Assembly (NCBI GenBank): GCA_937966555.1
Contig: CALCLY010000025.1
Span: 57,970-121,969 of the forward strand
From: an uncultured Clostridia bacterium
Lineage (GTDB): Bacteria > Bacillota > Clostridia > UMGS1883 > UMGS1540
Reading direction: 5' to 3'
DNA length: 64,000 nt
Position numbers and translations under genes: made by a program. The stretch's first letter is position 1, and each line of letters starts with the position of its first letter. Below are positions 5,240 through 64,000 of the stretch, piece by piece. Under the pieces are notes generated by a model. It was not told where the DNA came from. It did no database searches and saw only the letters and a program-made list of their open reading frames with translations.

Positions 5240-6301
5240 GTGGCAAACGAATATGCAAATTATATTCAGGTAATAAAGGTCATCGGTGTAGGCGGCGGCG
5301 GTTCAAATGCTGTTAACAGAATGGTAGACGCACAGGTAGAAGGCGTTGAATTTGTTGTTGTTAATACGGACAAGCAGGCTTTGGAGCTTTCCAAGGCAAA
5401 AACAAAAATTCAGATAGGCGAAAAAATCACAAGGGGTATGGGCGCAGGAGCAAATCCCGAGGTTGGAAGAAAAGCTGCGGAAGAAAGCCGCGGCGAAATA
5501 GAAAAAGCTGTTAAGGATGCCAATATGGTTTTCGTAACGGCAGGCATGGGCGGCGGTACAGGTACCGGCGCGGCTCCCGTTGTTGCTGATATTGCAAAAC
5601 AGATGGGAATACTTACAGTAGGTATAGTAACAAAGCCGTTTGCTTTTGAGGGCAGACGCCGTATGACACAGGCGGAATCCGGTATATCCGCACTTACGGA
5701 GTGTGTTGATACAATAATCGTAATCCCCAATGACAGACTTCTTACAATAAGCAGTGCAAAAACACTCTTTACGGAAGCATTTAAAATGGCGGACGAAAGT
5801 CTTCGCCAGGGTGTTCAGGGTGTATCCGACCTGATTTACAGACCGGGCACAATAAACGTTGACTTTGCAGACGTTACGTCCATCATGAAAGACGCCGGTC
5901 TTGCTCATATGGGCATAGGCCGTGCGAAGGGTGACAACAGAGCTGAAGAGGCTGCAAGAATAGCAATCGAAAGCCCGCTTCTTGAAACATCTATAGACGG
6001 TGCTACGGGTGTTCTTATAAACATTACGGGCGGCCCCGATCTGACGCTGTTTGAAATAAACTCCGCAACAACTCTTATACAAAACTGTGCGGACGCGAAT
6101 GCAAACATCATATTCGGTACGGCTATTGACAACAAGATGGAAGATGAAATTTCCGTAACTGTTATTGCAACGGGTTTCCCGAGCGGCAATAAGCAGAAGG
6201 ATATTGATGTTGATACAAACATGATAAATAAAAACTCAAACTTTAATGATGAGGATTTAACCCTTCCCGGTTTCCTCAAAAAATCAAGTTTTGATTTTTA
6301 A
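5240..6301 (+). CDS. ftsZ: Cell division GTPase FtsZ (GTG start)
   Basis: Tubulin signature GGGTGTG plus the [14 protein letters not shown]-terminus. RBS GAAGGAGG 6 nt upstream of the GTG. Confidence 0.95.
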
Positions 6302-6320
6302 TTTTAAAGCATTGTCACGT

Positions 6321-6350
6321 GCGGCTTCGGAAAGAAGCCGCATTTTTTAT
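6321..6350 (+). terminator. Rho-independent terminator after ftsZ (GCGGCTTC-ggaaa-GAAGCCGC + TTTTTTAT)
   Basis: Perfect 8 bp GC-rich stem with a U-tract. It also lies at the 3' end of the convergent small minus-strand ORF. Confidence 0.8.
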
Positions 6351-6508
6351 CTTCTGCGGCATTTTCCGCGTTTTCTGAAGATGCTTGAAAACCGTTTGTG
6401 AATCTCGCAGCCGGTGTCAGCTGCTTTTTTTGCGGCTCTTTTAAGAGCAAGCATTTCAAGGTACGCTTCAACCTCGCAAAGATAATCGCTGTATCTGTTT
6501 TTTTTCAT
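6347..6508 (-). CDS. Possible small basic protein (53 aa, MKKNRYSDYLCEVEAYLEMLALKRAAKKAADTGCEIHKRFSSIFRKRGKCRRR)
   Basis: Not in the supplied ORF track because it is under 60 aa. The ATG is preceded by GGAGAG at a 6 nt spacing. It is convergent with ftsZ and ends in the shared terminator hairpin. Confidence 0.3.
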   Translation of the reverse strand: MKKNRYSDYLCEVEAYLEMLALKRAAKKAADTGCEIHKRFSSIFRKRGKCRRR

Positions 6509-6629
6509 ATTAATCTCTCCGATCAGTTATATTCTATGTGAAAATATCCCGATTGATGATAATATGCTTTTCTTGACTTTTTAAGCGTAATATGATAAAA
6601 TGACTTTAAAATAACAAAGGAGAACAGCC

Positions 6630-7604
6630 ATGAAAAAGAGAATTATTGCTTTTTTTTCGGTTCTTATGATTTTTTGTGCGGCAGTTCCTGTAAATGCGGC
6701 GTCTTTATGCCCTATAAACTACAGCTGCTTTATTACGCATGACGATGAGGGAGTACCGAGTATTCATTTCAGGTTTGTAAACACGTCTGAAAAAAAGATA
6801 GTCCGCGCGGACTACCGCGGCAACCTGCTGGACAGATCGTTTGCGCCCGCTAACGACAGAACGGGCAAAACATCTTCGTTTTATATAAGAATAACAAATT
6901 TAAGTGTTGAAGGAAATGCGGCAGAGCAAAGCGAAACCGTAACGTCGCTTTCAACATATCCGAGTGCCGCACATGTTGAAAAAGTAACTTATTTGAAAAT
7001 TGTTTTTGATGACGGAACATCATGGGAGGGAAGCGCTTCGCCCGAGGCACATGCAAAGCTTCTGTGCCGCGATGCTATAAAAGACGGAAGATATGCATCC
7101 GAAGACGGTACATTGCATTTTGCGGACGCTTCAAACGGTTCGCAGATGCGCGAATGGTTTTATTGGGATGACGGAAGCATGGAATGGAAGCTTTTTTCCA
7201 CTGATTTGTGCCCGTTATTTAAAACTTCTCTGGCGGAAAACTGTATAAAACTTCAGATAAACGGCGATCCGATGAACTATGACATTATGAGCGTATCGGC
7301 ATCTGTTCCGCGCATTGCCGCAACGCTTTATAACAGCGGAGAAACGCTTTACTCCGACAGCGGCATAATGTCTTTTAAACCTGCGGAGCTCGGTGCGCCT
7401 TACAAAATTGCTCTTTGGGATTTCAATGAAGGAAAATCATCGCGGAAATGGTTTTTGTGGAGCGATGAGCAGGGCGGCTGGCAGTTTGTTTCATCTGAAC
7501 GGGGACCGATGCTTGACATGATTTCAAAAGCCCCCATATGCCTGAAAGTGGAATATGAGGGCAATCATCAGGATTATCTTGTATATAACATATATATGCA
7601 GTGA
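6630..7604 (+). CDS. Secreted hypothetical protein with cleavable signal peptide and two W-rich repeats (REWFYWDDGSMEWKLFSTD / RKWFLWSDEQGGWQFVSSE)
   Basis: N-terminal MKKRIIAFFSVLMIFCAAVPVNA signal peptide. RBS AAGGAGAA. The internal repeat was seen directly in the translation. Confidence 0.6.
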   Translation: MKKRIIAFFSVLMIFCAAVPVNAASLCPINYSCFITHDDEGVPSIHFRFVNTSEKKIVRADYRGNLLDRSFAPANDRTGKTSSFYIRITNLSVEGNAAEQSETVTSLSTYPSAAHVEKVTYLKIVFDDGTSWEGSASPEAHAKLLCRDAIKDGRYASEDGTLHFADASNGSQMREWFYWDDGSMEWKLFSTDLCPLFKTSLAENCIKLQINGDPMNYDIMSVSASVPRIAATLYNSGETLYSDSGIMSFKPAELGAPYKIALWDFNEGKSSRKWFLWSDEQGGWQFVSSERGPMLDMISKAPICLKVEYEGNHQDYLVYNIYMQ

Positions 7605-7606
7605 AA

Positions 7607-7918
7607 TCAGTTTCGGAAAGGCAATGCCGCAATCATGCCGAAAAGTGAAACGGCAAGCAGAACGGATACATAAATCCATGCTGTGGAGTTATAAAAAATA
7701 AAAAGTGTTACGGTGTACAAAGCAGGGCTTCCGAGCGCATAAAGCGGGCGGAAGCCGTTTTTGTATCCGTATATAAAAGATGTAACAAGACATATAAGAG
7801 GCATAATTATAAGCATAATAAGTATTGCGCTTCCCGTGTCTCTTATAAAAATGGGGAGCACACATATGTTTACTATCATTATAATGTAAAAAACAAGATT
7901 ATTCTTCAGTCTGCTCAT
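7607..7918 (-). CDS. Small integral membrane protein (3 predicted TM helices), co-transcribed with the TetR regulator
   Basis: 103 aa hydrophobic ORF overlapping the 3' end of the TetR gene by 20 nt. Confidence 0.5.
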   Translation of the reverse strand: MSRLKNNLVFYIIMIVNICVLPIFIRDTGSAILIMLIIMPLICLVTSFIYGYKNGFRPLYALGSPALYTVTLFIFYNSTAWIYVSVLLAVSLFGMIAALPFRN

Positions 7919-50253: not shown

Positions 50254-50283
50254 TTGACTTTGTGTTGAGTTTTATTGTATAAT
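50254..50283 (+). promoter_or_regulatory. Sigma-A type promoter for lyase 2 (TTGACT - 18 - TATAAT)
   Basis: Hexamers read directly, ~25 nt upstream of the RBS GGAGG. Confidence 0.5.
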
Positions 50284-50307
50284 TCAGAAAAAAGGTTGGA
50301 GGTAATT

Positions 50308-53300
50308 ATGAAAAAATTAACAGCAATACTTGTATCTCTTGTTATAAGTGCATCATTGTTACCCGCAAGGGCGGAAACAACCCCCGGGCACAAGCTCGAG
50401 ATGTTCATGGGAAACGCAGCCGCTTTTTACATCGGACAGCCGAAGATGTACACGGGCGGTGAAGTAAAATACGTTGACAGCGAAAACATAGCCGTATTGC
50501 CTTACATAAAGGACGGAAGAACGCTTGTTCCGCTTCGTGCGGCTGGCGAGTCAATCGGCGCAGAGATTTCGTACAACGAAATTGAAAGATCGGTAACCGC
50601 TGTTTACAACGGGGAAACGGCTGTTTTCCCGATAGGTCAAAATGAGTTTACGCTCGGCGGAAAAGAAATTCCCCTCGACGTTGCTCCCGAAATACGCGAA
50701 TCGAGAACCTTTGTTCCGATAAGAGCAATAAGCGAGGGCTTCGGGAAAAAGGTTTCCTACGATAAATGCGGTCTTGTGGTCATAGCCGACAGAGAAAATT
50801 TCTTTGATCTCGAAAAGGACCTCGATTTGTTCAGGGAGCTTACGGGCAAGCTTTGCTTTCATGCGCCCTCGGGCATCGAAGCGGTAAACAAAATAAAAGA
50901 AAACTTCCCCGATAACAAGCATCCGCGCCTTTATGCCGACGATGATAAAATCGAAGTTTTGCGCCGGAGGGTAAAAACCGACGCAAGCGTTTCAAAATGG
51001 TTTAAGGGTATAAGAGATTATGCGGATACTTATATAGGTACGGACCCCGTGGTTTATGATATTTACGACGGCATCAGGCTTTTAAATATTTCCCGTAAGG
51101 CAAGAAGCATAATGCAGGAGCTTGCATTTTGCTATCAGATGACGGGCGAAACAAAGTATGCCGACAGATGCATTAAGGAAATGAACGCCGTTTGCGAGTT
51201 TCCCGACTGGAATCCGTCTCACTTTCTCGATACGGCGGAAATGACGGAAGGACTTGCCTTTGCGTACGATTGGCTGTATAACTATATTACTCCCGATTTC
51301 CGCGAAAAGGTTAAAACGGCAATAATTGAAATGGGCTTAAAACAGGGAGTTCAGGATTACAGAAATAAGCCCGAGGACAGAAAAAGAACATACAGATGGG
51401 CGCAAAGCAGTGTTGCGGACAACTGGAACATTGTCTGCAATTCGGGACTTATTCAGGGTGCAATGGCAGTTTGCGAGGACGCGCCGGAGCTTGCGGCGGA
51501 GATTTTTGAAAGCGGAATGAAGCTTTTGGAGAAAGCTGTTTTGATGTACGGTCCCGACGGCGCATGGTATGAAGGCCCCGGCTATTGGCAGTATGCGACA
51601 GAGTATTTTATCGACCTTTGCAGCTGTCTGGATTCGGTTTTTTCCGATACGTTCGGATACTTGAGTGCGCCGGGTGTTTCGCAAACGGGCTACTACATAA
51701 CGGCAATAACAGGTCCTTGCGGAAACTTTAATTTCCATGATTCCGAAATACCTGCCGTAAACGCACCCGAGCTTTTCTTCCTTGCGGATAAGCTTTCCGA
51801 CAGCGCGCTTTCGGCGCTTCGCACGGAGCAGATGAAAAACAGAAACACAAAAGGCTCGATAAGAGACATTTTATATTATAATCCCGAGCTTTCCGGCGAC
51901 TCGGCTTTGATGAAAAAGGACTATTATTTCCGTGACACGGAGGTTGCTGCATTAAGAAGCGACTGGAACGATTACAATGCGGTATTCCTGGGCGTTCACG
52001 CAGGCAAAACAGACGTTTATCACGGACACATGGACGCGGGCAGTTTTGTTCTTGACGGCTTCGGCACGCGCTATGCCTGCGATTTGGGCGCGGATGACTA
52101 CAATATAGATGACAGCGTCTGGAATCTTTACAGATACAGAGCCGAGGGTCATAACACTCTCGTTATAAATCCTTCGAAGGACGGAGGACAGAAAATAGAA
52201 GGCTCAGCGAAGATTGACAGATTTGAGTATGACGACAACGACAGCTTGGCGGTTATGGATTTGACGGATATGTACGACGCTAAAAGCGTAAAGCGCGGCT
52301 TTAAGCTTATCGATAACCGCAGCGCCGTAATAATTCAGGACGAGATAAAGACGGATACGCCCTCGGATATCTGGTGGTTTATGCACTCGGAACAAGGCAT
52401 TGAAGTGTCGGAGGATAAAAAGAGCGCAACAATAAAGGGAGAATACAGAAATCTTAAAATTTCGCTCCTTCAAGACACGCCCGGAGAATTTTCGGTTATG
52501 GAGGCGGCCCCGATGGAGACATCGCCGCAAAATGATTCTCAGAACAAAAATTTAAAGTACAGAAAGCTTGCGTTTTGCGCGAAAAACGTAACGGATTTAA
52601 CTATTCCCATGCTCTTACGGTTTGAGCTGCCAATCGAAGGCGCGGAAGAGGGGATAAAGCCCGGTGTTACAAAGCTTGACAGCTGGACTCTTGATAACGC
52701 CGAGACGCCGAAAAAGCCGAAGCTTACAAGCATTCTGGCAGACGGCAGGGAAATCGAAGGTTTTGAGAGCGACAGATTTGTTTACGCATACAGAGGCCCT
52801 TCGGAAAATGAAAAAGCGCCCGAAATCACGGCACGCGGACAGGGTGAGATAAGCGTCGTGACAACCGGCAGCGTGCCGGGATACGCCGTGGTTTCGGTGA
52901 CCGAAAACGGAGAAACACAGCATTATGTTATAAAAATAGAACGCGAAATTTTAAAGAAGGCGCCGTCAGACGTTTTGAATTTTGAAATCAAGGGCGTTGA
53001 GGCAAGCGATGTTCCGCAGCCCGAAAACAACGCGGAAAATACCATTGACGAAAACCTTGCAACGCGTTGGTCTGCATACGGAAACGCGCATATAGTCTAT
53101 GATCTGGGCGAGGTTAAGACAATCAAATACGTAGGTCTTGCCGTTTATCAGGACAAATCAAATGACGGAAGAAGACAGTATTTTGATATATCGGTTTCGG
53201 AGGACGGAGAAAATTACAGGCATATCTTCACGGGCGAAACCACGGGAACAACGCTTGAAGAAGAAATTTTCCCGATAGGAGAGGCGAAGGGAAGATATGT

Positions 53301-53373
53301 AAAAATATATTGTAAGGGTTCAAGCATGGGAAACTGGAATTCCATCACCGAATGCAATATCTACGGGAAATAA
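50308..53373 (+). CDS. Secreted polysaccharide lyase 2: signal peptide, Cu-amine-oxidase-N-like domain, heparinase II/III-family domain, C-terminal discoidin domain
   Basis: Paralog of lyase 1 at ~75-80% nt identity in the catalytic region, sharing motifs such as YHGHMDAGSFVLDGFGTRYACDLG and NWNIVCNSGLIQGAMAV. Signal peptide MKKLTAILVSLVISASLLPARA. Start at the ATG at 50308. Confidence 0.75.
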   Translation: MKKLTAILVSLVISASLLPARAETTPGHKLEMFMGNAAAFYIGQPKMYTGGEVKYVDSENIAVLPYIKDGRTLVPLRAAGESIGAEISYNEIERSVTAVYNGETAVFPIGQNEFTLGGKEIPLDVAPEIRESRTFVPIRAISEGFGKKVSYDKCGLVVIADRENFFDLEKDLDLFRELTGKLCFHAPSGIEAVNKIKENFPDNKHPRLYADDDKIEVLRRRVKTDASVSKWFKGIRDYADTYIGTDPVVYDIYDGIRLLNISRKARSIMQELAFCYQMTGETKYADRCIKEMNAVCEFPDWNPSHFLDTAEMTEGLAFAYDWLYNYITPDFREKVKTAIIEMGLKQGVQDYRNKPEDRKRTYRWAQSSVADNWNIVCNSGLIQGAMAVCEDAPELAAEIFESGMKLLEKAVLMYGPDGAWYEGPGYWQYATEYFIDLCSCLDSVFSDTFGYLSAPGVSQTGYYITAITGPCGNFNFHDSEIPAVNAPELFFLADKLSDSALSALRTEQMKNRNTKGSIRDILYYNPELSGDSALMKKDYYFRDTEVAALRSDWNDYNAVFLGVHAGKTDVYHGHMDAGSFVLDGFGTRYACDLGADDYNIDDSVWNLYRYRAEGHNTLVINPSKDGGQKIEGSAKIDRFEYDDNDSLAVMDLTDMYDAKSVKRGFKLIDNRSAVIIQDEIKTDTPSDIWWFMHSEQGIEVSEDKKSATIKGEYRNLKISLLQDTPGEFSVMEAAPMETSPQNDSQNKNLKYRKLAFCAKNVTDLTIPMLLRFELPIEGAEEGIKPGVTKLDSWTLDNAETPKKPKLTSILADGREIEGFESDRFVYAYRGPSENEKAPEITARGQGEISVVTTGSVPGYAVVSVTENGETQHYVIKIEREILKKAPSDVLNFEIKGVEASDVPQPENNAENTIDENLATRWSAYGNAHIVYDLGEVKTIKYVGLAVYQDKSNDGRRQYFDISVSEDGENYRHIFTGETTGTTLEEEIFPIGEAKGRYVKIYCKGSSMGNWNSITECNIYGK

Positions 53374-53583
53374 AAAATATTTTTTATCCTGTTCCGCTGA
53401 CATAACAGGATGTTAAAAACTCCGGAAGACAGCGGAAAAATACATTTCTTGAGGCTTAACGTGATTTTTCGCGTTAAGCCTCAAGCTGTGTAAACAATTC
53501 ATTTTATACGCCTTATCGGTTCGTGATAAGAGATTTTTAATTATTTTTTGTGCCGGCGATTTTACGGCAAAATGGAGATTAAT

Positions 53584-55395
53584 ATGAAAAACACAAACAA
53601 AAAGGACAACCTGAAATATTTCAATGCGCCAAAGGGTTCCGAAATGGTAAAAATGATTTTGGAAAAACACCACGATAACGCTCATCCGCGCCTATATGCG
53701 GATAAAAACAAAATAAAAATTCTGCGTGAGCGGATCAAAAACGACACAAATGTCTCAAAATGGTTTGAGGATGTCAAGGAGCTTGCGGAAACATATTTTG
53801 ACATCGAGCCCGTAACATACGAAATCCCCGACGGCATAAGACTTCTTCGGAATTGCCGCAGAGCGAGAGACAGAATGCAGGAGCTTGCGTTTTGCTATCA
53901 AATGACGGGGGAGACAAGGTATGCCGAAAGATGCATAAAAGAAATGAAAGCCGTTTGCGCGTTTCCCGACTGGAATCCGTATCATTTTCTCGACACTGCC
54001 GAAATGACGGAGGGGCTTGCCTTTGCCTACGACTGGCTTTACAATTACATGTCGGAGGATTTTCGCGAAACTGTTAAATCTTCCATAATAAACAAGGGTC
54101 TGATGCAGATAGTCGAAGATTACAGAGATGAGCCGAAGGACAGGCGCAGAACATGGAAATGGGCGCAGAGCGAAGTGGCGGACAACTGGAATATTGTCTG
54201 CAATTCGGGCCTTACAGAGGGTGCGATGGCGGTTTGTGAGGACGCACCGGAGCTTGCCGCCGAGGTTTTTGACGGCGGCATGGAGCTTATTAAAAAAGCC
54301 GTTTTGTTATACGGCCCCGACGGCGCATGGTACGAAGGCCCCGCCTACTGGCAGTATGCGACAGAGTATTTTATCGGCTTTTGCTGCTGCCTTGATTCGG
54401 TTTTTTCCGACACCTTCGGTTATTTGAATGCGCCGGGAGTTTCGCAAACGGGCTACTACATCACCGCAATAACAGGTCCTTGCGGAAGCTTTAATTTCCA
54501 CGATTCGTCGATGGCGGTTATGAATGCGCCCGAGCTTTTCTTTCTTGCCGACAAGCTTTCCGACAGCGCGCTGTCCGCGCTCAGGACGGAGCAGATGACG
54601 GAAGGAAACGTTAAGGGTAAAATAAGAGATATTTTGTATTATAACCCCGAGCTTTCGGGAAAGTCGGCAAAGCTTAAAAAGGACTTTTATTTCCGCGACA
54701 CGGAGGTTGCCTCCTTCAGAAGCGGATGGGACAATGACGCGATATTTTTGGGTATTCACGCAGGCAAAACGGACGTTTATCACGGTCATATGGACGCGGG
54801 AAGCTTTGTTCTTGACGGCTTCGGCACGCGCTATGCCTGTGATTTGGGTGCGGATGATTACAATATAGAGGACAGAGTGTGGAATCTTTACAGATACAGA
54901 GCCGAGGGTCATAACACTCTCGTTATAAACCCTTCGAAGGACGGCGGACAAAGCCTTGAGGGAAATACGAAAATAGATGTTTTCAAGTCGGAGGAAAGCG
55001 CATTTGCGCAAATCAATTTAACCGATATGTACAATGCCGAAAGCGTAAAGCGCAGCTTTGAGCTTACAAACAACAGAAGTGAAATAATAATACGCGACAA
55101 AATAAAAACAAATGAAAAATCCGATGTTTGGTGGTTTATGCACACAACGTGCGAAATCAGTGTGTCGGAGGACAGGCGAAAAGCAATTTTAGCGGGGAAA
55201 AACAAGGATCTTGAGGTTTCGCTTATTTCGGACATTCCGGGAGAATTTTCGGTTATGAAGGCAATGCCCATGGAGACATCGCCGAAAAACTCCGAGCAGG
55301 ATAAAAACGAGGAATTCGTAAAGCTTGCTTTCCGTACGGAGAATGTAAAAGACGCGGAAATCTCAATATTAATGCGTTTTACGGAGAAACGGTGA
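53584..55395 (+). CDS. Polysaccharide lyase 3: heparinase II/III-family catalytic region only, with no signal peptide (predicted cytoplasmic)
   Basis: Tandem paralog of lyase 2, ~90% nt identity over long stretches. Start placed at the ATG at 53584 after GGAG; alternative starts are 53572 and 53548 (TTG). Lacks the Cu-amine-oxidase-N and discoidin modules. Confidence 0.7.
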   Translation: MKNTNKKDNLKYFNAPKGSEMVKMILEKHHDNAHPRLYADKNKIKILRERIKNDTNVSKWFEDVKELAETYFDIEPVTYEIPDGIRLLRNCRRARDRMQELAFCYQMTGETRYAERCIKEMKAVCAFPDWNPYHFLDTAEMTEGLAFAYDWLYNYMSEDFRETVKSSIINKGLMQIVEDYRDEPKDRRRTWKWAQSEVADNWNIVCNSGLTEGAMAVCEDAPELAAEVFDGGMELIKKAVLLYGPDGAWYEGPAYWQYATEYFIGFCCCLDSVFSDTFGYLNAPGVSQTGYYITAITGPCGSFNFHDSSMAVMNAPELFFLADKLSDSALSALRTEQMTEGNVKGKIRDILYYNPELSGKSAKLKKDFYFRDTEVASFRSGWDNDAIFLGIHAGKTDVYHGHMDAGSFVLDGFGTRYACDLGADDYNIEDRVWNLYRYRAEGHNTLVINPSKDGGQSLEGNTKIDVFKSEESAFAQINLTDMYNAESVKRSFELTNNRSEIIIRDKIKTNEKSDVWWFMHTTCEISVSEDRRKAILAGKNKDLEVSLISDIPGEFSVMKAMPMETSPKNSEQDKNEEFVKLAFRTENVKDAEISILMRFTEKR

Positions 55396-55496: not shown

Positions 55497-55525
55497 TTGA
55501 CAAAACTTGCGATAAATTGTATAAT
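55497..55525 (+). promoter_or_regulatory. Near-consensus sigma-A promoter for the hydrogenase operon (TTGACA - 17 bp - TATAAT)
   Basis: Perfect -35 and -10 hexamers with a 17 bp spacer, ~70 nt upstream of hydC. Confidence 0.7.
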
Positions 55526-55597
55526 ACTTTTTGTGTGCTTTGTGCTATATTGTGTTAAAAAAATAACAAAGCGTAATACTCGGAAGGAGGGCTATCA

Positions 55598-56089
55598 ATG
55601 CCTCATTTGAATGATGCTTCCGCAGCAAAAATATCTGAAATTTGCGACAGATACACAGCGGAAAAAACGCCTCTAATGATGATCCTCAGCGATATCCAGA
55701 ACGAATACGGTTATATTCCTCTGGAGGCGCAGGAGCTTGTTTCGGAAAAAACGGGTATTTCCGTTGCCGAAATATACGGGGTGGTTACTTTTTACTCATT
55801 TTTCTCTTTACAGCCAAAAGGGAAATATATTATAGGCTGCTGTCTCGGTACGGCATGCTATGTTAAGGGCGCGCAGCATATTATCGATAAGTTTTCCGAG
55901 GTTTTGGGCGTTAAACCCGGTGAAACGACAGAAGACGGTATGTTTACCATCGATGCGTTAAGATGTATCGGCGCCTGCGGTATTGCTCCGGCAGTATCCA
56001 TTAACGGAAAGGTATATCCCAAGGTTTCGGTTGACCAGGTTCCCGAAATTATCGAAGAATATCGTAATATGGAGGGTGCGGGTCAATGA
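55598..56089 (+). CDS. hydC: [FeFe]-hydrogenase subunit HydC (NuoE-like thioredoxin-fold [2Fe-2S] protein)
   Basis: Motifs CLGTACYVKGA and CIGACGIAPAVSING. 163 aa. RBS GGAAGGAGG. Confidence 0.8.
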   Translation: MPHLNDASAAKISEICDRYTAEKTPLMMILSDIQNEYGYIPLEAQELVSEKTGISVAEIYGVVTFYSFFSLQPKGKYIIGCCLGTACYVKGAQHIIDKFSEVLGVKPGETTEDGMFTIDALRCIGACGIAPAVSINGKVYPKVSVDQVPEIIEEYRNMEGAGQ

Positions 56090-57951
56090 TTAAAAACTTT
56101 GATGAATTAAATTCAAAAATTTGTGATTGCTCCAAAAGCTTTGACGCCAAAATGGTGGGAGAAAACGGTAAGCGCGCAATACTTCTTTGCGGCGGTACGG
56201 GATGTCTTTCGTCAAATTCGGCCGAAATTCAGGAGAAATTTTCCGAGCTTGTAAAAGAACATAAAATGGAGGACAAGGTTTCGGTTAACAAAGTCGGCTG
56301 TTTCGGCTTCTGCTCACAGGGACCTTTTGTAAAGATTTATCCCGAAGACACGCTTTACCGTCTTGTCTGTCTTGACGATGTTGAAGAAATTTTCGAAAAA
56401 GACATAATAAACCATGAGGTTGTTGAAAGACTTTTGTATGTTGACCCTGCAACAAAAGAGCATGTTACAAAGCAGGATGATATAAACTTCTATAAAAAGC
56501 AGGTGCGTGTTGCTTTGCACGGCTGCGGTCAGATAAACCCCGAGGATATCGAAGAGGCTTTGGGCTTTGACGCATTTAAGGGTCTTATAAAAGCTCTTTC
56601 AATGTCTCGCGAGGACGTTATAAAAGAGGTTTTGGATTCCGGACTTCGCGGCAGAGGAGGAGGCGGCTTCCCAACGGGCAGAAAATGGCAGTTTGCGTTT
56701 GCTCAGCCCGACGGTGAGAAATATGTTGTCTGTAACGGCGACGAGGGTGACCCCGGTGCTTTTATGGACAGGTCAATCCTCGAAGGCAACCCTCTTGCCG
56801 TTATAGAAGGCATGATGATTGCCGGTTACGCAATAGGCGCACAAAACGGTTATTTTTACGTTCGTGCGGAATATCCCATTGCCGTTAACAGACTTAAAAT
56901 AGCTATAAAGCAGGCTGAAGAGCTTGGACTTTTGGGAGAAAACATTTTGGGCACGGGTTTCTCGTTCCGCGTTCATATAAGACTCGGCGCCGGCGCATTC
57001 GTGTGCGGTGAGGAAACGGCTCTTCTGAATTCCATAGAGGGTCAGAGAGGTATGCCGCGTCCCCGTCCGCCGTTCCCGGCAGTTAAGGGTCTGTGGCAGA
57101 GCCCGACTATAGTAAATAACGTTGAAACGCTTGCAACCGTTCCCTATATATTAAGAGAGGGCGCCGCAAAGTTTGCGGAATACGGCACGGAAAATTCCAA
57201 GGGCACCAAGGTGTTCGCCCTCGGCGGTAAAATAAACAACGTTGGTCTTGTTGAGGTTCCCATGGGCACAACGCTCCGCGAGCTTATCTATGATATCGGC
57301 GGCGGAATCCCCGAAGGAAAGAAATTCAAGGCTATACAGACGGGCGGTCCCTCCGGCGGCTGTTTGACAGAGAAGGATCTCGACACGCCCATAGACTTCA
57401 ACAGTCTCGTTGCAAAAGGCTCAATGATGGGCTCCGGCGGCGCAATTGTTATGGACGAGGATAACTGTATGGTTGACGTTGCAAAATTCTATATGGAATT
57501 TATCTGCGACGAGTCCTGCGGTAAGTGCTCACCCTGCCGTATCGGTACAAAGAGAATGCTCGAGCTTCTCACAAAGATAACCGAGGGTAAGGCTGATATG
57601 GAAGATTTAAACCAGCTTGAAGAGCTTGCCGCTACAATTAAAAACGGCGCTTTGTGCGCTCTGGGGCAGACGGCGGCAAACCCCGTTACGTCAACCCTTA
57701 CTCATTTCAGAGATGAATACATAGCTCATATCGTTGACAAGAACTGTCCCGCACATGTTTGCAAGAGACTTACAAGCTACAGCATTGACCCCGACAAGTG
57801 TAAAAAATGCAGTCTCTGTGCAAGACAGTGTCCCGTTGATGCTATTTCGGGCGTTGTCGGCAAGGAACCGTTCGTAATCGACCGGAGCAAGTGTATAAAG
57901 TGCGGAATGTGTATGTCTTCCTGCAAATTCGGCGCTGTTATAAAGAAATAA
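56086..57951 (+). CDS. hydB: [FeFe]-hydrogenase subunit HydB (NuoF-like NAD(P)H/FMN-binding subunit with N-terminal [2Fe-2S] and C-terminal 2x[4Fe-4S])
   Basis: The GRGGGGFPTGRKW FMN/NADH motif, a SLBB region, the 4Fe-4S C-X2-C-X2-C-X3-C motifs CKKCSLCARQCP and CIKCGMCMSSC, and an N-terminal thioredoxin-like Cys pattern. Confidence 0.85.
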   Translation: MIKNFDELNSKICDCSKSFDAKMVGENGKRAILLCGGTGCLSSNSAEIQEKFSELVKEHKMEDKVSVNKVGCFGFCSQGPFVKIYPEDTLYRLVCLDDVEEIFEKDIINHEVVERLLYVDPATKEHVTKQDDINFYKKQVRVALHGCGQINPEDIEEALGFDAFKGLIKALSMSREDVIKEVLDSGLRGRGGGGFPTGRKWQFAFAQPDGEKYVVCNGDEGDPGAFMDRSILEGNPLAVIEGMMIAGYAIGAQNGYFYVRAEYPIAVNRLKIAIKQAEELGLLGENILGTGFSFRVHIRLGAGAFVCGEETALLNSIEGQRGMPRPRPPFPAVKGLWQSPTIVNNVETLATVPYILREGAAKFAEYGTENSKGTKVFALGGKINNVGLVEVPMGTTLRELIYDIGGGIPEGKKFKAIQTGGPSGGCLTEKDLDTPIDFNSLVAKGSMMGSGGAIVMDEDNCMVDVAKFYMEFICDESCGKCSPCRIGTKRMLELLTKITEGKADMEDLNQLEELAATIKNGALCALGQTAANPVTSTLTHFRDEYIAHIVDKNCPAHVCKRLTSYSIDPDKCKKCSLCARQCPVDAISGVVGKEPFVIDRSKCIKCGMCMSSCKFGAVIKK

Positions 57952-57965
57952 GGGAGGGAAATTAA

Positions 57966-59732
57966 GTGTCAGAAATTAATATTAAAATAGAAGGCGTTTC
58001 CTACAAAGTTGAGGAGGGGCTTACAATACTTGAGGCCGCCAAAAAGTGCGGTTATGAAATTCCGTCCCTTTGTGCATACAATCACGGTGAATGTTCAAGA
58101 GGTTCCTGCCGCGTATGTCTCGTTGAGGCAACCGGGGCAAGAGGTCTTGTAGCATCCTGTGTGTATCCCGTAAGCGAAGGAATGGAAATCACAATTTCGT
58201 CGCCCAAGGCGGTTGCGGCAAGGCGTGCATCTGTTGAGCTGCTTCTTTCAAACCACTCGACAGACTGTCAGCAGTGCGATAAAAACGAATACTGCGAGCT
58301 TTTGCACGTTGCGCGCATTACGGGCGCGAGAGAGGGTATGTTTGAGGGAGAAAAAACCCCGACAACCTTGGACGAGCTTACGCCGTCCATCGTTCGCGAT
58401 ACGTCAAAATGTATTCTCTGCGGAAGATGTATCGAAAGATGTAAAAATGCTCACGGAAAAGGTATTTTGGGATTTGAGAACCGCGGCTTTGCAACAATTG
58501 TTGCACCTGCCGAAAACAGATCCTTTGCAAATTCGCCGTGTATACTCTGCGGTCAGTGCACAAGCGTCTGTCCTACGGGCGCATTGATGGAAAAGTCCGA
58601 AATACATAAAATTGACGAGGCGAAAAGCCGCGGTAAATTCATAGTTGTTCAGACGGCTCCTGCGGTTCGTGCGGCGCTTGGCGAGGAATTCGGAATGAAA
58701 ATAGGCACGCCCGTTACCGGAAAAATGGTTGCGGCGCTTCGCCGTCTTGGTTTCGACAAGGTTTACGATACCGATTTTGCCGCTGACCTCACAATTATGG
58801 AGGAGGCAACCGAGCTTCTCGGAAGAATAACAAACGGCGGAGTTCTTCCGATGATAACATCGTGCTCCCCCGGCTGGATAAACTACGCGGAGTATAATTA
58901 TTCCGATTTGCTTCCGCATCTTTCAAGCTGCAAATCGCCTCATGAGATGTTCGGCGCAATAGTTAAGTCCTACTATGCCGAGAAAAACGGCATTGATCCG
59001 GCTGATATTTTTGTTGTTTCAATTATGCCCTGTACGGCAAAGAAATTTGAAAAGGAAAGAGAACAGCTTAAAACAAACGGATTTATGGACGTTGACGCTG
59101 TCTTAACAACACGTGAGCTTGCAAAGCTTATAAAGCGTTCAGGCATAAACTTCAAAAAGCTTCCGGATGAGGAGTTTGACGCTGATTTGCTCGGCGATTA
59201 CACCGGAGCCGGCGTTATCTTCGGCGTTACCGGCGGCGTTATGGAGGCTGCATTGAGAACGGCTTATCACGCGCTCACAGGTAAAGAGCATGAGCTTATT
59301 AAGTTTGAAGCTGTTCGCGGTTTTGACGGAATCCGTGAAGCAAGCCTTGATATAAACGGCACCATTATAAATGTTGCTGTGGCACACGGCATGAAAAACG
59401 CAAAGGTTTTGCTTGACGATATAAGAGCGGGCAAGTCAAAATATCACTTTATCGAGATAATGGGCTGCCCCGGCGGATGTATTGCGGGCGGCGGTCAGCC
59501 GTATGTGAAACCGTGCTTTTTGCCCGATGAGGATATTGATATTCTCGATACGTATAAGGAAAAGAGAGCAGCGGCGCTTTATTCCGAGGACGAAAGAAAC
59601 GCTGTGCGTCAGTCTCACAACAATATGCAGGTTAAGGCGCTTTATGATGAGTTTTTGGGAGAACCTAATTCGCATAAGGCTCATGAGCTTTTGCATACGA
59701 CATATGCGGCGCGTGAGGGCTTTAACGACTGA
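57966..59732 (+). CDS. hydA: [FeFe]-hydrogenase catalytic subunit HydA (M3 type: 2Fe-2S, His-ligated 4Fe-4S, 2x4Fe-4S, H-cluster), GTG start
   Basis: H-cluster motifs L2 MPCTAKKFE and L3 EIMGCPGGCIAGGGQP. L1 reads TSCSPGW, where the canonical form is TSCCPxW. Also the N-terminal ferredoxin-type Cys patterns. Confidence 0.85.
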   Translation: MSEINIKIEGVSYKVEEGLTILEAAKKCGYEIPSLCAYNHGECSRGSCRVCLVEATGARGLVASCVYPVSEGMEITISSPKAVAARRASVELLLSNHSTDCQQCDKNEYCELLHVARITGAREGMFEGEKTPTTLDELTPSIVRDTSKCILCGRCIERCKNAHGKGILGFENRGFATIVAPAENRSFANSPCILCGQCTSVCPTGALMEKSEIHKIDEAKSRGKFIVVQTAPAVRAALGEEFGMKIGTPVTGKMVAALRRLGFDKVYDTDFAADLTIMEEATELLGRITNGGVLPMITSCSPGWINYAEYNYSDLLPHLSSCKSPHEMFGAIVKSYYAEKNGIDPADIFVVSIMPCTAKKFEKEREQLKTNGFMDVDAVLTTRELAKLIKRSGINFKKLPDEEFDADLLGDYTGAGVIFGVTGGVMEAALRTAYHALTGKEHELIKFEAVRGFDGIREASLDINGTIINVAVAHGMKNAKVLLDDIRAGKSKYHFIEIMGCPGGCIAGGGQPYVKPCFLPDEDIDILDTYKEKRAAALYSEDERNAVRQSHNNMQVKALYDEFLGEPNSHKAHELLHTTYAAREGFND

Positions 59733-59745
59733 TATTTGCTTTTAA

Positions 59746-60075
59746 AAAAACAAAGCTGTTTAAAAAGCCACAACCCGATAAGGAAGTATTGGTTTTGAAA
59801 GCCGTTCTTTAAGTTTATACTTCGTAAACAGGCGGTCGTATACGTCAGTATTACGACCGCCTGTTTTCTTGTCTAAAGCTTAAACTCCGACCTTCAAAAC
59901 TGCTCTGCACCCTGTAAACAATATTTTTTGATGAAGTTCAAGGCAAAAAAGCGAGTAATCCTGTCGGATTTCGAGCCTTTTTTAACGCTGAAATTCGCAA
60001 AAAAGATGTTTAGCAGGGCAATACTTCCTTGCCGGGCTGTGGCTAAAGTCAGTTGACTTTTTAAACAGCTTTTTT
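59746..60075. mobile_element. MITE-like non-coding element bounded by ~50 bp imperfect terminal inverted repeats
   Basis: Left arm AAAGCTGTTTAAAAAGCCACAACCCGATAAGGAAGTATTG (59752-59792). The right arm reverse-complements to AAAGCTGTTTAAAAAG[14 nt insert]CCACAGCCCGGCAAGGAAGTATTG (60020-60072). No ORF between the arms. Confidence 0.45.
59826..59870 (+). terminator. Terminator after hydA (AAACAGGCGGTCGTA ... TACGACCGCCTGTTT + TCTTG), lying inside the MITE-like element
   Basis: 15 bp inverted repeat with a T-rich tail. Confidence 0.6.
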
Positions 60076-60089
60076 TATGAGGTAAACAA

Positions 60090-60167: not shown

Positions 60168-61511
60168 ATGAACGAACGAATGAAGCATATATCGGATGCT
60201 GTTGAAAAACATTCAAAATTGATTTTGGAAGCGGAAAGACATATCTGGAAAAACCCCGAAACAGGTTATAAAGAAGAAAAAACAAGCAAATATCTTGAAG
60301 GCAAATTCAAAGAAATGGGATATAACACAACTCCTGCCGGAGATATACCCGGGTTTTGCGCAGAGCTTGATACCGGAAGAAAAGGACCGTGTGTTCTTGT
60401 TTTGGGGGAAATGGATTCGCTTATATGCGCTGAGCACCCCGAGTGCGATCCTGTTACAAAGGCCGCACATGTATGCGGACACAATGCGCAAACCGCAGCG
60501 CTTCTCGGAGTTGCGGCAGCTTTGGCGGACAGTGATATTGCAGAAAACTGGAGCGGAAAAGTGAGATTTTGCGCCGTGCCCGCCGAAGAACTTATAGAAA
60601 TCGGTTTTCGTGATACGCTTAAGGAAAAAGGAATTATAAAATATTACGGCGGTAAAACGGAGTTTTTGTACAGAGGATATTTTGATGGTGCCGATATGGC
60701 GATGATGGTGCATGCAAGGGCATGTGAGGGGTTCTATTTTAATGCGGGAAGCGTTGGCTGTCTTGCAAAAAAAATAGTATATAAAGGAAAAAGCGCACAT
60801 GCGGGCGGAGCGCCGCATGAAGGCATTAACGCTCTGTATGCCGCAAATCTCGGGCTTTCCGCTGTAAATGCGCTTCGTGAAACCTTCAGAGAATGTGACA
60901 CTATAAGATTCCACCCGATTATAACAAAAGGCGGAAGCGCGGTAAACGCAATTCCGGACGAGGTTATCGTTGAAAGCTATGTAAGAGGTATGACACTTGA
61001 CGCAATAGAACGTGAAAACAATAAAATAAACCGCGCTCTGACAGCAGCGGCGGCCGCAATGGGCGCAAATGTTGAAATTTTTGATAACCCCGGATACAGC
61101 CCGTACGTAACGGACAAAAATTTTGCTGAGGCGGCATTAAAATCCGTTTCGGGCACGCCGTATGAATACAAATTTAATTTCGGCGAAACCGAAACATCAA
61201 GTACGGATATGGGCGATTTATCAAGCGTTATGCCTACAATTCAGCCGTATGCCGGTGGTGCCGTAGGCACTCAGCACGGCAAAGATTTTTATATAAAAGA
61301 CCCTCAGACAGCTTGTGTTGACAATGCAAAGGTTCAAATAAGAATTCTTGATGAGCTTCTGTGCGGCGGCGCGGAAACCGCAATAAAAATAGCTGCCGAA
61401 GCAAAGCCGCTTTTTGCATCAAAAGAAGATTATTTCAAAAAAATAGATTCCCTCGTTCAAAGCGGAGACCGCATAAAATATGAGGACGGCAGAATTATTT
61501 TAAGAGGCTGA
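60168..61511 (+). CDS. M20D-family amidohydrolase (aminoacylase/hippurate hydrolase-like)
   Basis: HVCGHNAQTAALLGVAAAL metal-binding motif of M20D peptidases. Start taken at the ATG at 60168 after AGAGGTGA; the track lists a TTG at 60159. Confidence 0.7.
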   Translation: MNERMKHISDAVEKHSKLILEAERHIWKNPETGYKEEKTSKYLEGKFKEMGYNTTPAGDIPGFCAELDTGRKGPCVLVLGEMDSLICAEHPECDPVTKAAHVCGHNAQTAALLGVAAALADSDIAENWSGKVRFCAVPAEELIEIGFRDTLKEKGIIKYYGGKTEFLYRGYFDGADMAMMVHARACEGFYFNAGSVGCLAKKIVYKGKSAHAGGAPHEGINALYAANLGLSAVNALRETFRECDTIRFHPIITKGGSAVNAIPDEVIVESYVRGMTLDAIERENNKINRALTAAAAAMGANVEIFDNPGYSPYVTDKNFAEAALKSVSGTPYEYKFNFGETETSSTDMGDLSSVMPTIQPYAGGAVGTQHGKDFYIKDPQTACVDNAKVQIRILDELLCGGAETAIKIAAEAKPLFASKEDYFKKIDSLVQSGDRIKYEDGRIILRG

Positions 61512-62532
61512 GCACAATAAGAAATAAAATCGACACAAAGCCCGAAAAGCCCGAAAACATGAAGATCTTTTCGGAAATAATATCGGAAAACGAAGAGAGC
61601 GAAACAGGGAAGAAAATAAGCAGAATATATGCGCACAGCGCGGATAAAACCGCACACAAAAGTTTGCCCCAAATGCAGTAAAAAAGAGAGAGGCGCGCGT
61701 CTTTTGTAAATGCCAGCGTCTGCATGAAAACGGATATGCCGCCAAACGATATCACCGCGGCGGCGCACGGAATACTTTTTGAGGCGGACGAAAAAAGCGC
61801 TGTTGTTATTTCGAAAAGTCCGCATGAAAAAAGCTCGGCATTTTCCGTCGAAAGTCCCAAGCGACAAAGAAAAGAAGTCAGAAACGAAATGACTCCGCTT
61901 TGACGGAGAATTGACAGTACAACCGAAAAAAATACCACCGTGCCGCAGAGAGACAGCATGCTTTCTGCGGCACGGCTTATTGAATTTTCGGAATTTATTG
62001 CCGATGCTGCAAACTGCTGTGTGCCGCTTTCTTGTTTTTTGGCAAAGAACGAAAAAATAATTCCGCACAAAATGGCGCCAAGGACATGTGAAACATACAA
62101 AATAACCCCGGCGCGTGTGCTGCCGAAAATGCCGAGACCCACGGCGCTTATAATAAAAAGAGGACCGGAGTTATTTGAAAAGGCCAAAAGGCGGTTGGCT
62201 TCATTTTTCGTGAGAGAACCGTTTTTATAAAGACTGCAAACCGTGGCGGCTCCGCACGGATATCCGCTTAAAAATCCTAAAACAATCGGCAGAGCGCCGC
62301 TCCCTCCGACCGAAAAAAGCGGACGGGTGATTTTGCCTGCGTATTTGGATATTTTGTCCGCTGCGCCGAGCGAAACCAATATATTTGAACATACCAAAAA
62401 AGGAAAAATTGACGGAATCAATACATCGGAACAAAGAATCAGTGCATTTTTCGCCGCTTCGCGCGACTGAACGGGCATTGCAGCAATGCAGAGCGCAAGA
62501 AGCGCCGTGAATATAACGGCAATTTTTTTCAT
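61495..62532 (-). CDS. ylbJ: Sporulation integral membrane protein YlbJ-like (nucleoside-recognition/Gate domain)
   Basis: 345 aa polytopic membrane protein with Gly-rich Gate-like segments (GGSGALPIVLGFLSGYPCGA). It is convergent with the M20 gene and divergent from yqfC. Confidence 0.5.
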   Translation of the reverse strand: MKKIAVIFTALLALCIAAMPVQSREAAKNALILCSDVLIPSIFPFLVCSNILVSLGAADKISKYAGKITRPLFSVGGSGALPIVLGFLSGYPCGAATVCSLYKNGSLTKNEANRLLAFSNNSGPLFIISAVGLGIFGSTRAGVILYVSHVLGAILCGIIFSFFAKKQESGTQQFAASAINSENSISRAAESMLSLCGTVVFFSVVLSILRQSGVISFLTSFLCRLGLSTENAELFSCGLFEITTALFSSASKSIPCAAAVISFGGISVFMQTLAFTKDARLSLFYCIWGKLLCAVLSALCAYILLIFFPVSLSSFSDIISEKIFMFSGFSGFVSILFLIVLSLLK

Positions 62533-62612
62533 AATGACACCTCACTATACTTATATTTAAAACAAGTCATAAAAATGCATAAGATGCATATATTTTTACG
62601 GAGGTGACTGCG

Positions 62613-62885
62613 GTGAAAAAAAGAATACCCAAAATAGAAAAAGCTGTGGAAGCGCTTGATCTGCCGCGCGAGCTGGTGCTGGGAATACCGTATCTCACAG
62701 TACTCGGCGACAGAGAGGCGCGCCTTGAAAACTACAGCGGCGTGGCGGAATACACCGAAACGGGAATATCCGTATGCACTTCTATAGGCATATACGAAAT
62801 CCGCGGAGAGGGGCTTTCCATAAAAGCCATAACGGGAGAAGATGTTACAATATGCGGCAGGGTGACGGGGTTTGATTTGAAATGA
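62613..62885 (+). CDS. yqfC: Sporulation protein YqfC (GTG start at 62613; track start 62604)
   Basis: ~90 aa with typical YqfC features (DLPRELVLGIPYLTVLG...ENY.GV.EYTE..I...GL.I.G..L.I). GGAGG 8 nt upstream. Immediately followed by yqfD. Confidence 0.7.
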   Translation: MKKRIPKIEKAVEALDLPRELVLGIPYLTVLGDREARLENYSGVAEYTETGISVCTSIGIYEIRGEGLSIKAITGEDVTICGRVTGFDLK

Positions 62886-64000
62886 TACTTGATTTTTTAT
62901 ATTTTTTAAGAGGATATCTTGTAATTAAGGTCTCAGGGCCTTTTATCGAGCGCTTTATTAATATTGCAACAAAAAACGGAATTTTGCTCAGAAAAATCAC
63001 GCGCGGCAAAGATTCTGCAACAATGCTTATAAGTGCACGCGGTTTCAAAAAAATCCGTTCGGCGGCAAGGAAAACAAAAACCTCCGCGAAAATCGTTGAA
63101 AAATGCGGACTTCCGCTTTTTTTACATAAACACAGAAAGCGCAGCTTTTTTTATGTGGGAATATGTATTTTCGGCGCGGTTTTATTGTGTTTATCGTCAT
63201 TTATATGGTCTGTTGAGATAGAAGGAACGGAAAAAATAGACAAAAATATTATAAGAGAAGCGTTAAGGTCTTGCGGTATTGACGCAGGTGTGGTAAAATA
63301 CAATCATAAGCTTTCCGATATACAGGATGATATGCTTTTGAAAGTGCCGTCTCTTTCGTGGTGCTGGGTGGAAATCAGAGGTACTCGTGCAATTGTTTCG
63401 GTGCGCGAAAGAAGCGAAAAACCCGAGATTGAACAAAGCGATATTCCGTGCAATATTGTTGCAAAAAGAGACGGGGTAATAAAAAAACTTACGGTTTTGC
63501 AGGGCGAGCCTGTTTTAAAAGAAGGCGAAGCTGTGCAAAAGGGCGGACTTATAGTAAGCGGCGCGCTTGACAGCTCCTTTTACGGCGTGAGACTTATTCA
63601 TGCGGACGCGGAGGTTGAGGCTGAAACATGGCATGAAAAAAGCGGTGTATTTCCGCTTGTGCGTACGGAAACGAAGGAAACGGGACGTGCGGAAAAAAGA
63701 TATGTTTTAAGTATATGCGGTAAAGATATAACGGTTTATCCGTTCTCAAAAATTTGTTTTTCGGATTATGAGATTGCGGAAGAAGAAAAAAAATTAAAGC
63801 TCTGGGGCGATTTTTATTTGCCGATTTCGGTAAAAATACAAAATGTTCGTGAAACCGAATCTGTAGAAATTCCGCAAAGCAATGAGGAGGCGGCGGATTT
63901 TTATGCTGCTGTGCTTTACGCAGACTTGGAAAAGGAAGCCGAAGATGCGGAAATAATAGAAAAAAACTCGGAATATACAGTGGAAAACGGAACAATTACA
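62882..64000 (+). CDS. yqfD: Stage IV sporulation protein YqfD, 3' end beyond the window; absent from the ORF track because no stop occurs before nt 64000
   Basis: Own translation from the ATG overlapping the yqfC TGA (ATGA): MILDFLYFLRGYLVIKVSGPFIERFINIATKNGILL...NIVAKRDGVIKKLTVLQGEPV...GGLIVSGALD. These resemble the B. subtilis YqfD hallmarks. A single TM segment sits around residue 100. Confidence 0.7.
   Translation, partial: MILDFLYFLRGYLVIKVSGPFIERFINIATKNGILLRKITRGKDSATMLISARGFKKIRSAARKTKTSAKIVEKCGLPLFLHKHRKRSFFYVGICIFGAVLLCLSSFIWSVEIEGTEKIDKNIIREALRSCGIDAGVVKYNHKLSDIQDDMLLKVPSLSWCWVEIRGTRAIVSVRERSEKPEIEQSDIPCNIVAKRDGVIKKLTVLQGEPVLKEGEAVQKGGLIVSGALDSSFYGVRLIHADAEVEAETWHEKSGVFPLVRTETKETGRAEKRYVLSICGKDITVYPFSKICFSDYEIAEEEKKLKLWGDFYLPISVKIQNVRETESVEIPQSNEEAADFYAAVLYADLEKEAEDAEIIEKNSEYTVENGTIT

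Follow-up and report, generated by a model that had tools for sequence, protein, structure and literature searches.

The hydCBA operon and its surroundings

The window, by which we mean the whole stretch of 64,000 nucleotides that was analysed, carries on its plus strand a three-gene operon in the order hydC-hydB-hydA. The first gene, hydC (55598-56089, +), codes for a NuoE-like [2Fe-2S] subunit of 163 amino acids, which matches the NuoE/HoxE families and whose best match among solved structures is HydC of Acetobacterium woodii (7q4v_C; E 2.9e-49). Its stop codon overlaps the start codon of hydB in the sequence ATGA. HydB (56086-57951, +; 621 amino acids) is a NuoF-like flavoprotein subunit, formed by an N-terminal 2Fe-2S ferredoxin domain (residues 40-117), a NuoF core (154-549) and a C-terminal 4Fe-4S ferredoxin domain (565-617) of the 2x[4Fe-4S] type; again, the best solved match is the A. 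woodii subunit (7q4v_B; E 5.6e-249). The last gene, hydA (57966-59732, +), starts with GTG and encodes the [FeFe] hydrogenase catalytic subunit, of 588 amino acids. Residues 1-583 of HydA align to A. woodii HydA1 (7q4v_A; E 3.3e-199), its best solved match, with 54.8% identity. Motifs of a second [FeFe] hydrogenase were searched for in the whole window, and none were found besides those of hydA.

The three genes are adjacent and colinear in 60 of the 63 orthologous loci for which enough upstream sequence was available. At one locus with a TSCSP-type hydA (L078, hydA at 6001-7758), hydB and hydC were not detected within 6 kb upstream, and this gene may represent a rearranged operon or a solitary HydA. 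A candidate σ70 promoter, recognised by its match to the consensus (TTGACA-17-TATAAT; 12 of 12 positions), is found at 55497-55525 (+), about 70 nt 5' of the hydC start. Between this promoter and hydC lies a Rex-like palindrome, GTGTTAAAAAAATAACAA (55552-55569), in which 12 of 14 consensus positions match. When 62 related loci were scanned along with the window, a comparable site was present in only 4 of these 63 sequences, with a chance expectation of about 0.1. A Rex operator upstream of hydC was thus rejected as a conserved feature of the operon, and any redox control through Rex would not be general among the relatives.

Upstream of the operon (50275-55395) are two tandem paralogues of 1032 and 615 amino acids, which have long near-identical stretches in common. 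Both show DSE-like_N and heparinase II/III C-terminal domains, with only weak matches to the NCBIfam HepB models, and the longer one is extended at both its N- and its C-terminus. The two proteins probably act as polysaccharide lyases and belong to a locus for glycan degradation in the gut. Downstream of the operon (61495-64000) there are sporulation genes: a ylbJ-like gene (61495-62532, -; 200 bits against TIGR02871, below the cut-off of 304.65), a YabP/YqfC-like gene (62604-62885) and a YqfD-like gene that runs off the end of the window at position 64000. Therefore, the host is a spore-forming member of the Clostridia; as an approximate placement, it is a gut or rumen Clostridia bacterium resembling the Oscillospiraceae/Acutalibacteraceae.

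Downstream of hydA there is a MITE-like element of 279 nt (59766-60044), present in one copy in the window and bounded by terminal inverted repeats of 26 nt that are 88% complementary. It interrupts the ancestral terminator hairpin of hydA within the loop; the arms of this hairpin are at 59748-59770 and 60054-60076. The element has a hairpin of its own, with a perfect 15-bp stem and a T-rich tail behind it (59826-59866, +), and this inverted-repeat pair is likely to be the present terminator of hydA. Other strains of this species, which encode an identical HydA, do not have the element: L082 lacks about 264 nt here and keeps a simple hairpin, and gene spacing indicates the same for L084 and L087. 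At another locus with an identical HydA (L088, 5127-7767), synteny 3' of hydA is broken by fragments of an ISL3-type transposase and a GH127 glycoside hydrolase, and the M20 amidohydrolase present in the window is absent. An Rfam scan of the whole window returned nothing at gathering score.

The L1 motif and the family assignment of HydA

The codons ATG ATA ACA TCG TGC TCC CCC GGC TGG (58851-58877) are in frame with hydA and translate as M296-I-T-S-C300-S301-P-G-W304, so that the L1 motif (T298-W304; 58857-58877, +) reads TSCSPGW rather than TSCCPxW, as a sequence-only reading of this DNA had stated. That reading had asked for raw reads to be re-inspected at 58872-58877, but these positions hold GGC TGG; the serine codon, TCC, is at 58866-58868 (+), and the position of the suspected G-to-C change is 58867. 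The register of the motif was established with HMMER alignments to Clostridium pasteurianum hydrogenase I (CpI) and to Thermoanaerobacter kivui HydA1, mapped residue by residue. C300 (TGC, 58863-58865, +) pairs with CpI C299, the proton-transfer cysteine (PMC11376134), and S301 pairs with CpI C300, at a ligand position of the [4Fe-4S] subcluster of the H-cluster (herein the cubane). The roles proposed earlier for the two positions, proton transfer for the first and cubane ligation for the second, are thereby borne out, and the register is right.

The L2 and L3 motifs were found whole, in agreement with the sequence-only reading. L2, MPCTAKKFE (59025-59051, +), includes Cys356 and Lys359, and L3, EIMGCPGGCIAGG (59454-59492, +), includes Cys501 and Cys505. 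Thus, the three other cubane cysteines are retained (C356, C501 and C505, equivalent to CpI C355, C499 and C503). Following CpI numbering, in which the cysteine bridging to the di-iron site is C503, we take the bridging residue of the window protein to be C505. The second L3 cysteine is the di-iron anchor according to Kertess et al. (2017; PMC5855289), whereas Katsyv et al. (JACS 2023; PMC10021017) assign the additional bond to the di-iron site to Cys356Aw. The residues of the proton-transfer pathway are kept as well (E280, E283, R287, S320 and C300, corresponding to CpI E279, E282, R286, S319 and C299), as are K359, M354 and M499.

By the motif definition that we used for group A [FeFe] hydrogenases (L1 TSCCPxW, L2 MPCxxKxxE and L3 ExMxCxxGCxxG, with four cubane ligands), HydA matches L2 and L3 exactly, and its L1 is a recorded natural variant, TSCSPGW. 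HydA scores 843.8 bits against the NCBIfam model of NADH-dependent [FeFe] hydrogenases of group A6 (NF040763; cut-off 765), over positions 1-571 of the 571 of the profile, and 542 bits against TIGR02512 (cut-off 405.95); its score against TIGR04105, 175.5 bits, is below the cut-off of 450. This M3-type HydA thus passes the cut-off of the HydABC family (group A3 in HydDB; 'group A6, NADH-dependent' in NCBIfam), and it adjoins the partners expected in that family, namely a NuoE-like HydC and a NuoF-like HydB, which has a 2Fe-2S domain at its N-terminus and a 2x4Fe-4S domain at its C-terminus. With a serine at the CpI Cys300 position, and the proton-transfer cysteine and three cubane cysteines kept, the protein also has the sequence pattern of the Ser-ligand subclass. 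It differs from group B enzymes, whose motif is TSCCCP with a third adjacent cysteine, and the low TIGR04105 score likewise speaks against group B.

An altered L1 motif could also mark a sensory or degenerate, non-catalytic paralogue, comparable to the group C enzymes (HydS) or to the TSCSPGW copies of Melainabacteria that have lost an L3 cysteine. The trimeric hydrogenases of Melainabacteria ACD20 carry the same TSCSPGW in a HydABC-type context (Di Rienzi et al., eLife 2013; PMC3787301), and in two of them an L3 cysteine is exchanged for isoleucine, which their authors described as deviating from functional motifs (PMC3787301). A literature search for the string TSCSP matched only this paper. 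In addition, an altered L1 occurs together with a degraded L2 or L3 in a few distant representatives of our survey (e.g. P0124 and P0209). However, HydA of the window keeps both L3 cysteines and has intact L2 and L3 motifs, and its proton-transfer cysteine and pathway residues are conserved. HydS enzymes were defined here by loss of the proton-transfer cysteine of L1 and gain of a PAS or other signalling domain; in the window protein Cys300 is retained, and the Pfam list consists only of Fer2_4, NADH-G_4Fe-4S_3, Fer4 types, Fe_hyd_lg_C and Fe_hyd_SSU, with neither PAS nor any other extra domain in an architecture that is of the HydA1 type from end to end. The protein aligns over its full length to A. 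woodii HydA1, an enzyme with the same motif that is catalytically active, and its score exceeds the curated cut-off for the catalytic hydrogenases of group A6. A sensory or degenerate nature is thus very improbable, and the suggestion of a sensory-type enzyme made from the sequence alone, which the hydCBA operon also speaks against, was rejected.

Conservation and distribution of Ser301

A simpler explanation of the serine would be an error of sequencing or assembly, in which a TGC codon (Cys) was turned into TCC by the miscall of one G as C. Its sole support is that the two codons are one base apart. Against it, the exact HydA protein is found on at least 22 contigs, and the representative cluster to which it belongs comprises 31 contigs from NCBI, Logan and ENA. 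Eight of the contigs with the exact protein were inspected; they come from eight ENA/Logan samples and were built with several different assemblers. Their hydA genes are 0-34 synonymous bases away from that of the window, and the serine codon is TCC in six of these same-protein strains and TCG, which is two changes from any Cys codon, in the other two. The independent assemblies refute a sequencing error, which had been raised when the sequence was first read and to which we assign practically no probability.

The same conclusion is reached with more distant relatives. TSCSPGW is present in all 120 close homologues listed (85-100% identity), and TSCSP[GA]W in all 80 species-level orthologues (80-90% identity), which derive mostly from metagenome-assembled genomes (MAGs) of gut or rumen Oscillospiraceae, Acutalibacteraceae or 'Clostridia'. 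Related genomes thus carry TSCSP; Cys-Cys in them would have spoken for a miscall. Among the 80 orthologues Ser301 is encoded by all four TCN codons (TCA in 32, TCT in 22, TCG in 14 and TCC in 12), and the codon for Cys300 is TGC or TGT throughout. Since the codon turns over synonymously and the amino acid is invariant, the serine is old and selected; Ser301 is conserved under purifying selection.

Serine at this position has been reported for about 20% of the hydrogenase sequences analysed (Kertess et al., 2017; PMC5855289, citing Winkler, Esselborn and Happe, 2013). We surveyed the best 150 representatives of 50%-identity clusters drawn from a library of 1.84 billion proteins. Among the 133 representatives with the proton-transfer cysteine, Cys-Ser was found in 22 (16.5%) and Cys-Cys in 111. 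Nearly all Cys-Ser sequences that extend to L2 and L3 have both motifs intact, and in sequences with intact motifs position 301 is hardly ever an alanine or a glycine. The claim that a serine would be unusual in the catalytic subunit of a HydABC enzyme therefore does not hold: it is present in HydABC of A. woodii and in some 16-20% of relatives.

The serine sequences cluster, in that the nearest neighbour is also a serine sequence for 14 of 20 of them, compared with about three expected. A neighbour-joining tree of 131 H-domains, analysed by Fitch parsimony, gave 15 changes with many singleton serine 'clades', but is unreliable at the divergence involved (50% or more). Monophyly of the serine subclass was thus not retained and, the tree being unreliable, multiple origins are likewise not claimed. 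One related genome (L049) has, at about position 757 (+), a second [FeFe] hydrogenase with a canonical TSCCPAW motif, about 5 kb upstream of its own TSCSP-type hydA, which shows that a genome can contain both types of L1.

Serine as a probable ligand of the H-cluster

The closest enzyme of known structure, HydABC of A. woodii, offers a direct precedent. The sequence LPMITSCSPGWI of its HydA1 (7q4v, 7q4w and 8a5e) is identical to that of the window protein, with the serine aligned and bearing the same residue number, 301, and the three remaining cubane cysteines are the same. In A. woodii, Ser301 is described as a ligand of the H-cluster [4Fe-4S], replacing a cysteine, in an enzyme that shows normal H-cluster infrared signatures and catalytic activity (Katsyv et al., 2023; PMC10021017). 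The possibility of serine ligation, one of those put forward in the sequence-only reading, is in this way the option that is supported. There are also differences: about 45% of the HydA residues differ, L3 includes EIMGCPGGC in the window and ELMACPGGC in A. woodii, the genes of the window form a compact hydC-hydB-hydA array, and the host belongs to a gut or rumen Clostridia lineage and, unlike A. woodii, is not an acetogen. The comparison extends to HydABC of T. kivui (8a6t) and to CpI (4xdc and others), which share with the window protein the M3-type architecture, the L2 and L3 motifs and the proton-transfer residues; however, both have a canonical TSCCP, with a cysteine ligand in place of Ser301, and CpI is a monomeric, ferredoxin-dependent enzyme that works without HydB or HydC, in contrast to the HydABC operon of the window.

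The window very probably encodes a functional HydABC-type [FeFe] hydrogenase whose catalytic subunit has an H-cluster of the natural Ser-ligand subclass. By analogy with the A. woodii homologue, from which serine ligation, a normal FTIR signature and activity are here carried over to a protein 54.8% identical, the [4Fe-4S] subcluster would be held by the serinate oxygen of Ser301 together with Cys356, Cys501 and the bridging Cys505, the Ser301 oxygen ligating one iron of the cubane, and protons would, as is usual, reach the di-iron site through Cys300 as the final relay. H2 would be made or split at HydA, and electrons would pass through the iron-sulfur chain of HydA to the FMN of HydB, where they would be coupled to NAD(H) and ferredoxin, as in HydABC of A. 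woodii. The best explanation thus includes an enzyme that would be NADH- and ferredoxin-linked, of the electron-bifurcating or confurcating type; among the homologues, it is those of A. woodii and T. kivui alone in which H2 turnover has been shown to be coupled to both NAD(H) and ferredoxin (PMC10021017).

Alternatively, the serine may not be a ligand at all, and either Cys300 could shift to the cubane or water or hydroxide could hold the fourth iron site, with protons delivered by another route. In HydA1 of Chlamydomonas, the corresponding residue was changed from Cys to Ser by engineering (C115S as numbered in the expressed protein, where C115 follows the proton-transfer residue C114), and the variant did not hold its cluster: cubane binding was nearly abolished and all activity was lost (Kertess et al., Chem Sci 2017; PMC5855289). 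Moreover, the A. woodii map showing Ser301 at the cubane is at 3.4 Å, and the ligand atom is not resolved, so that the Fe-O(Ser) bond is modelled rather than proven. However, the authors of that study place Ser301 at the cluster in their model and observe a canonical infrared signature of the H-cluster, in which the protonated and hydride states are represented; these states require protons to be delivered normally (PMC10021017). Both Cys300 and Ser301 are invariant among the orthologues, and alanine or glycine hardly occurs at position 301 in sequences with intact L2 and L3, a pattern consistent with a specific function of the side chain. We regard a non-ligating serine as improbable, and ligation by Ser301 as the reading to be preferred. 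The failure of the engineered C115S enzyme then implies that ligation by serine is context-dependent and, as natural serine enzymes are conserved and that of A. woodii is active, that the natural protein context must accommodate the oxygen ligand.

Residues that might compensate for the serine were sought by computing the mutual information between Ser/Cys at position 301 and every other column of the alignment, and no strong partner emerged. The best columns near the cluster, 500 (Gly/Ala/Cys versus Ala) and 297 (Ile versus Phe), give weak signals that are confounded by phylogeny; an Ile instead of a Phe just before the motif is present in 12 of the 22 serine sequences, compared with 12 of the 111 cysteine sequences. 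A more speculative idea, which we put forward tentatively and think rather unlikely, is that the serine is an adaptive tuning device and not a neutral alternative to cysteine, and that it needs a permissive second sphere. Candidate permissive features would be the Ile for Phe before the motif and a Gly or Cys for the Ala before the first L3 cysteine. If the idea is true, the cubane would have an altered potential or spin state, owing to its oxygen ligand, across a large HydABC-type subclass that is abundant in gut and rumen Clostridia, and the need for a permissive second sphere would account for the loss of the cluster when the same change is made in Chlamydomonas HydA1.

The serine variant in the window is already known: it is a documented natural subclass in a routine HydABC operon, and neither an error nor a new type of enzyme. 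The window protein adds no new principle and is one further example, from a gut Clostridia lineage. In genome annotation, TSCSPxW should be read neither as an error nor as the sign of a pseudogene or of a sensory hydrogenase: the motif is typical of a common natural subclass that makes up about one sixth of relatives, with a structurally characterised and active bifurcating enzyme among its members.
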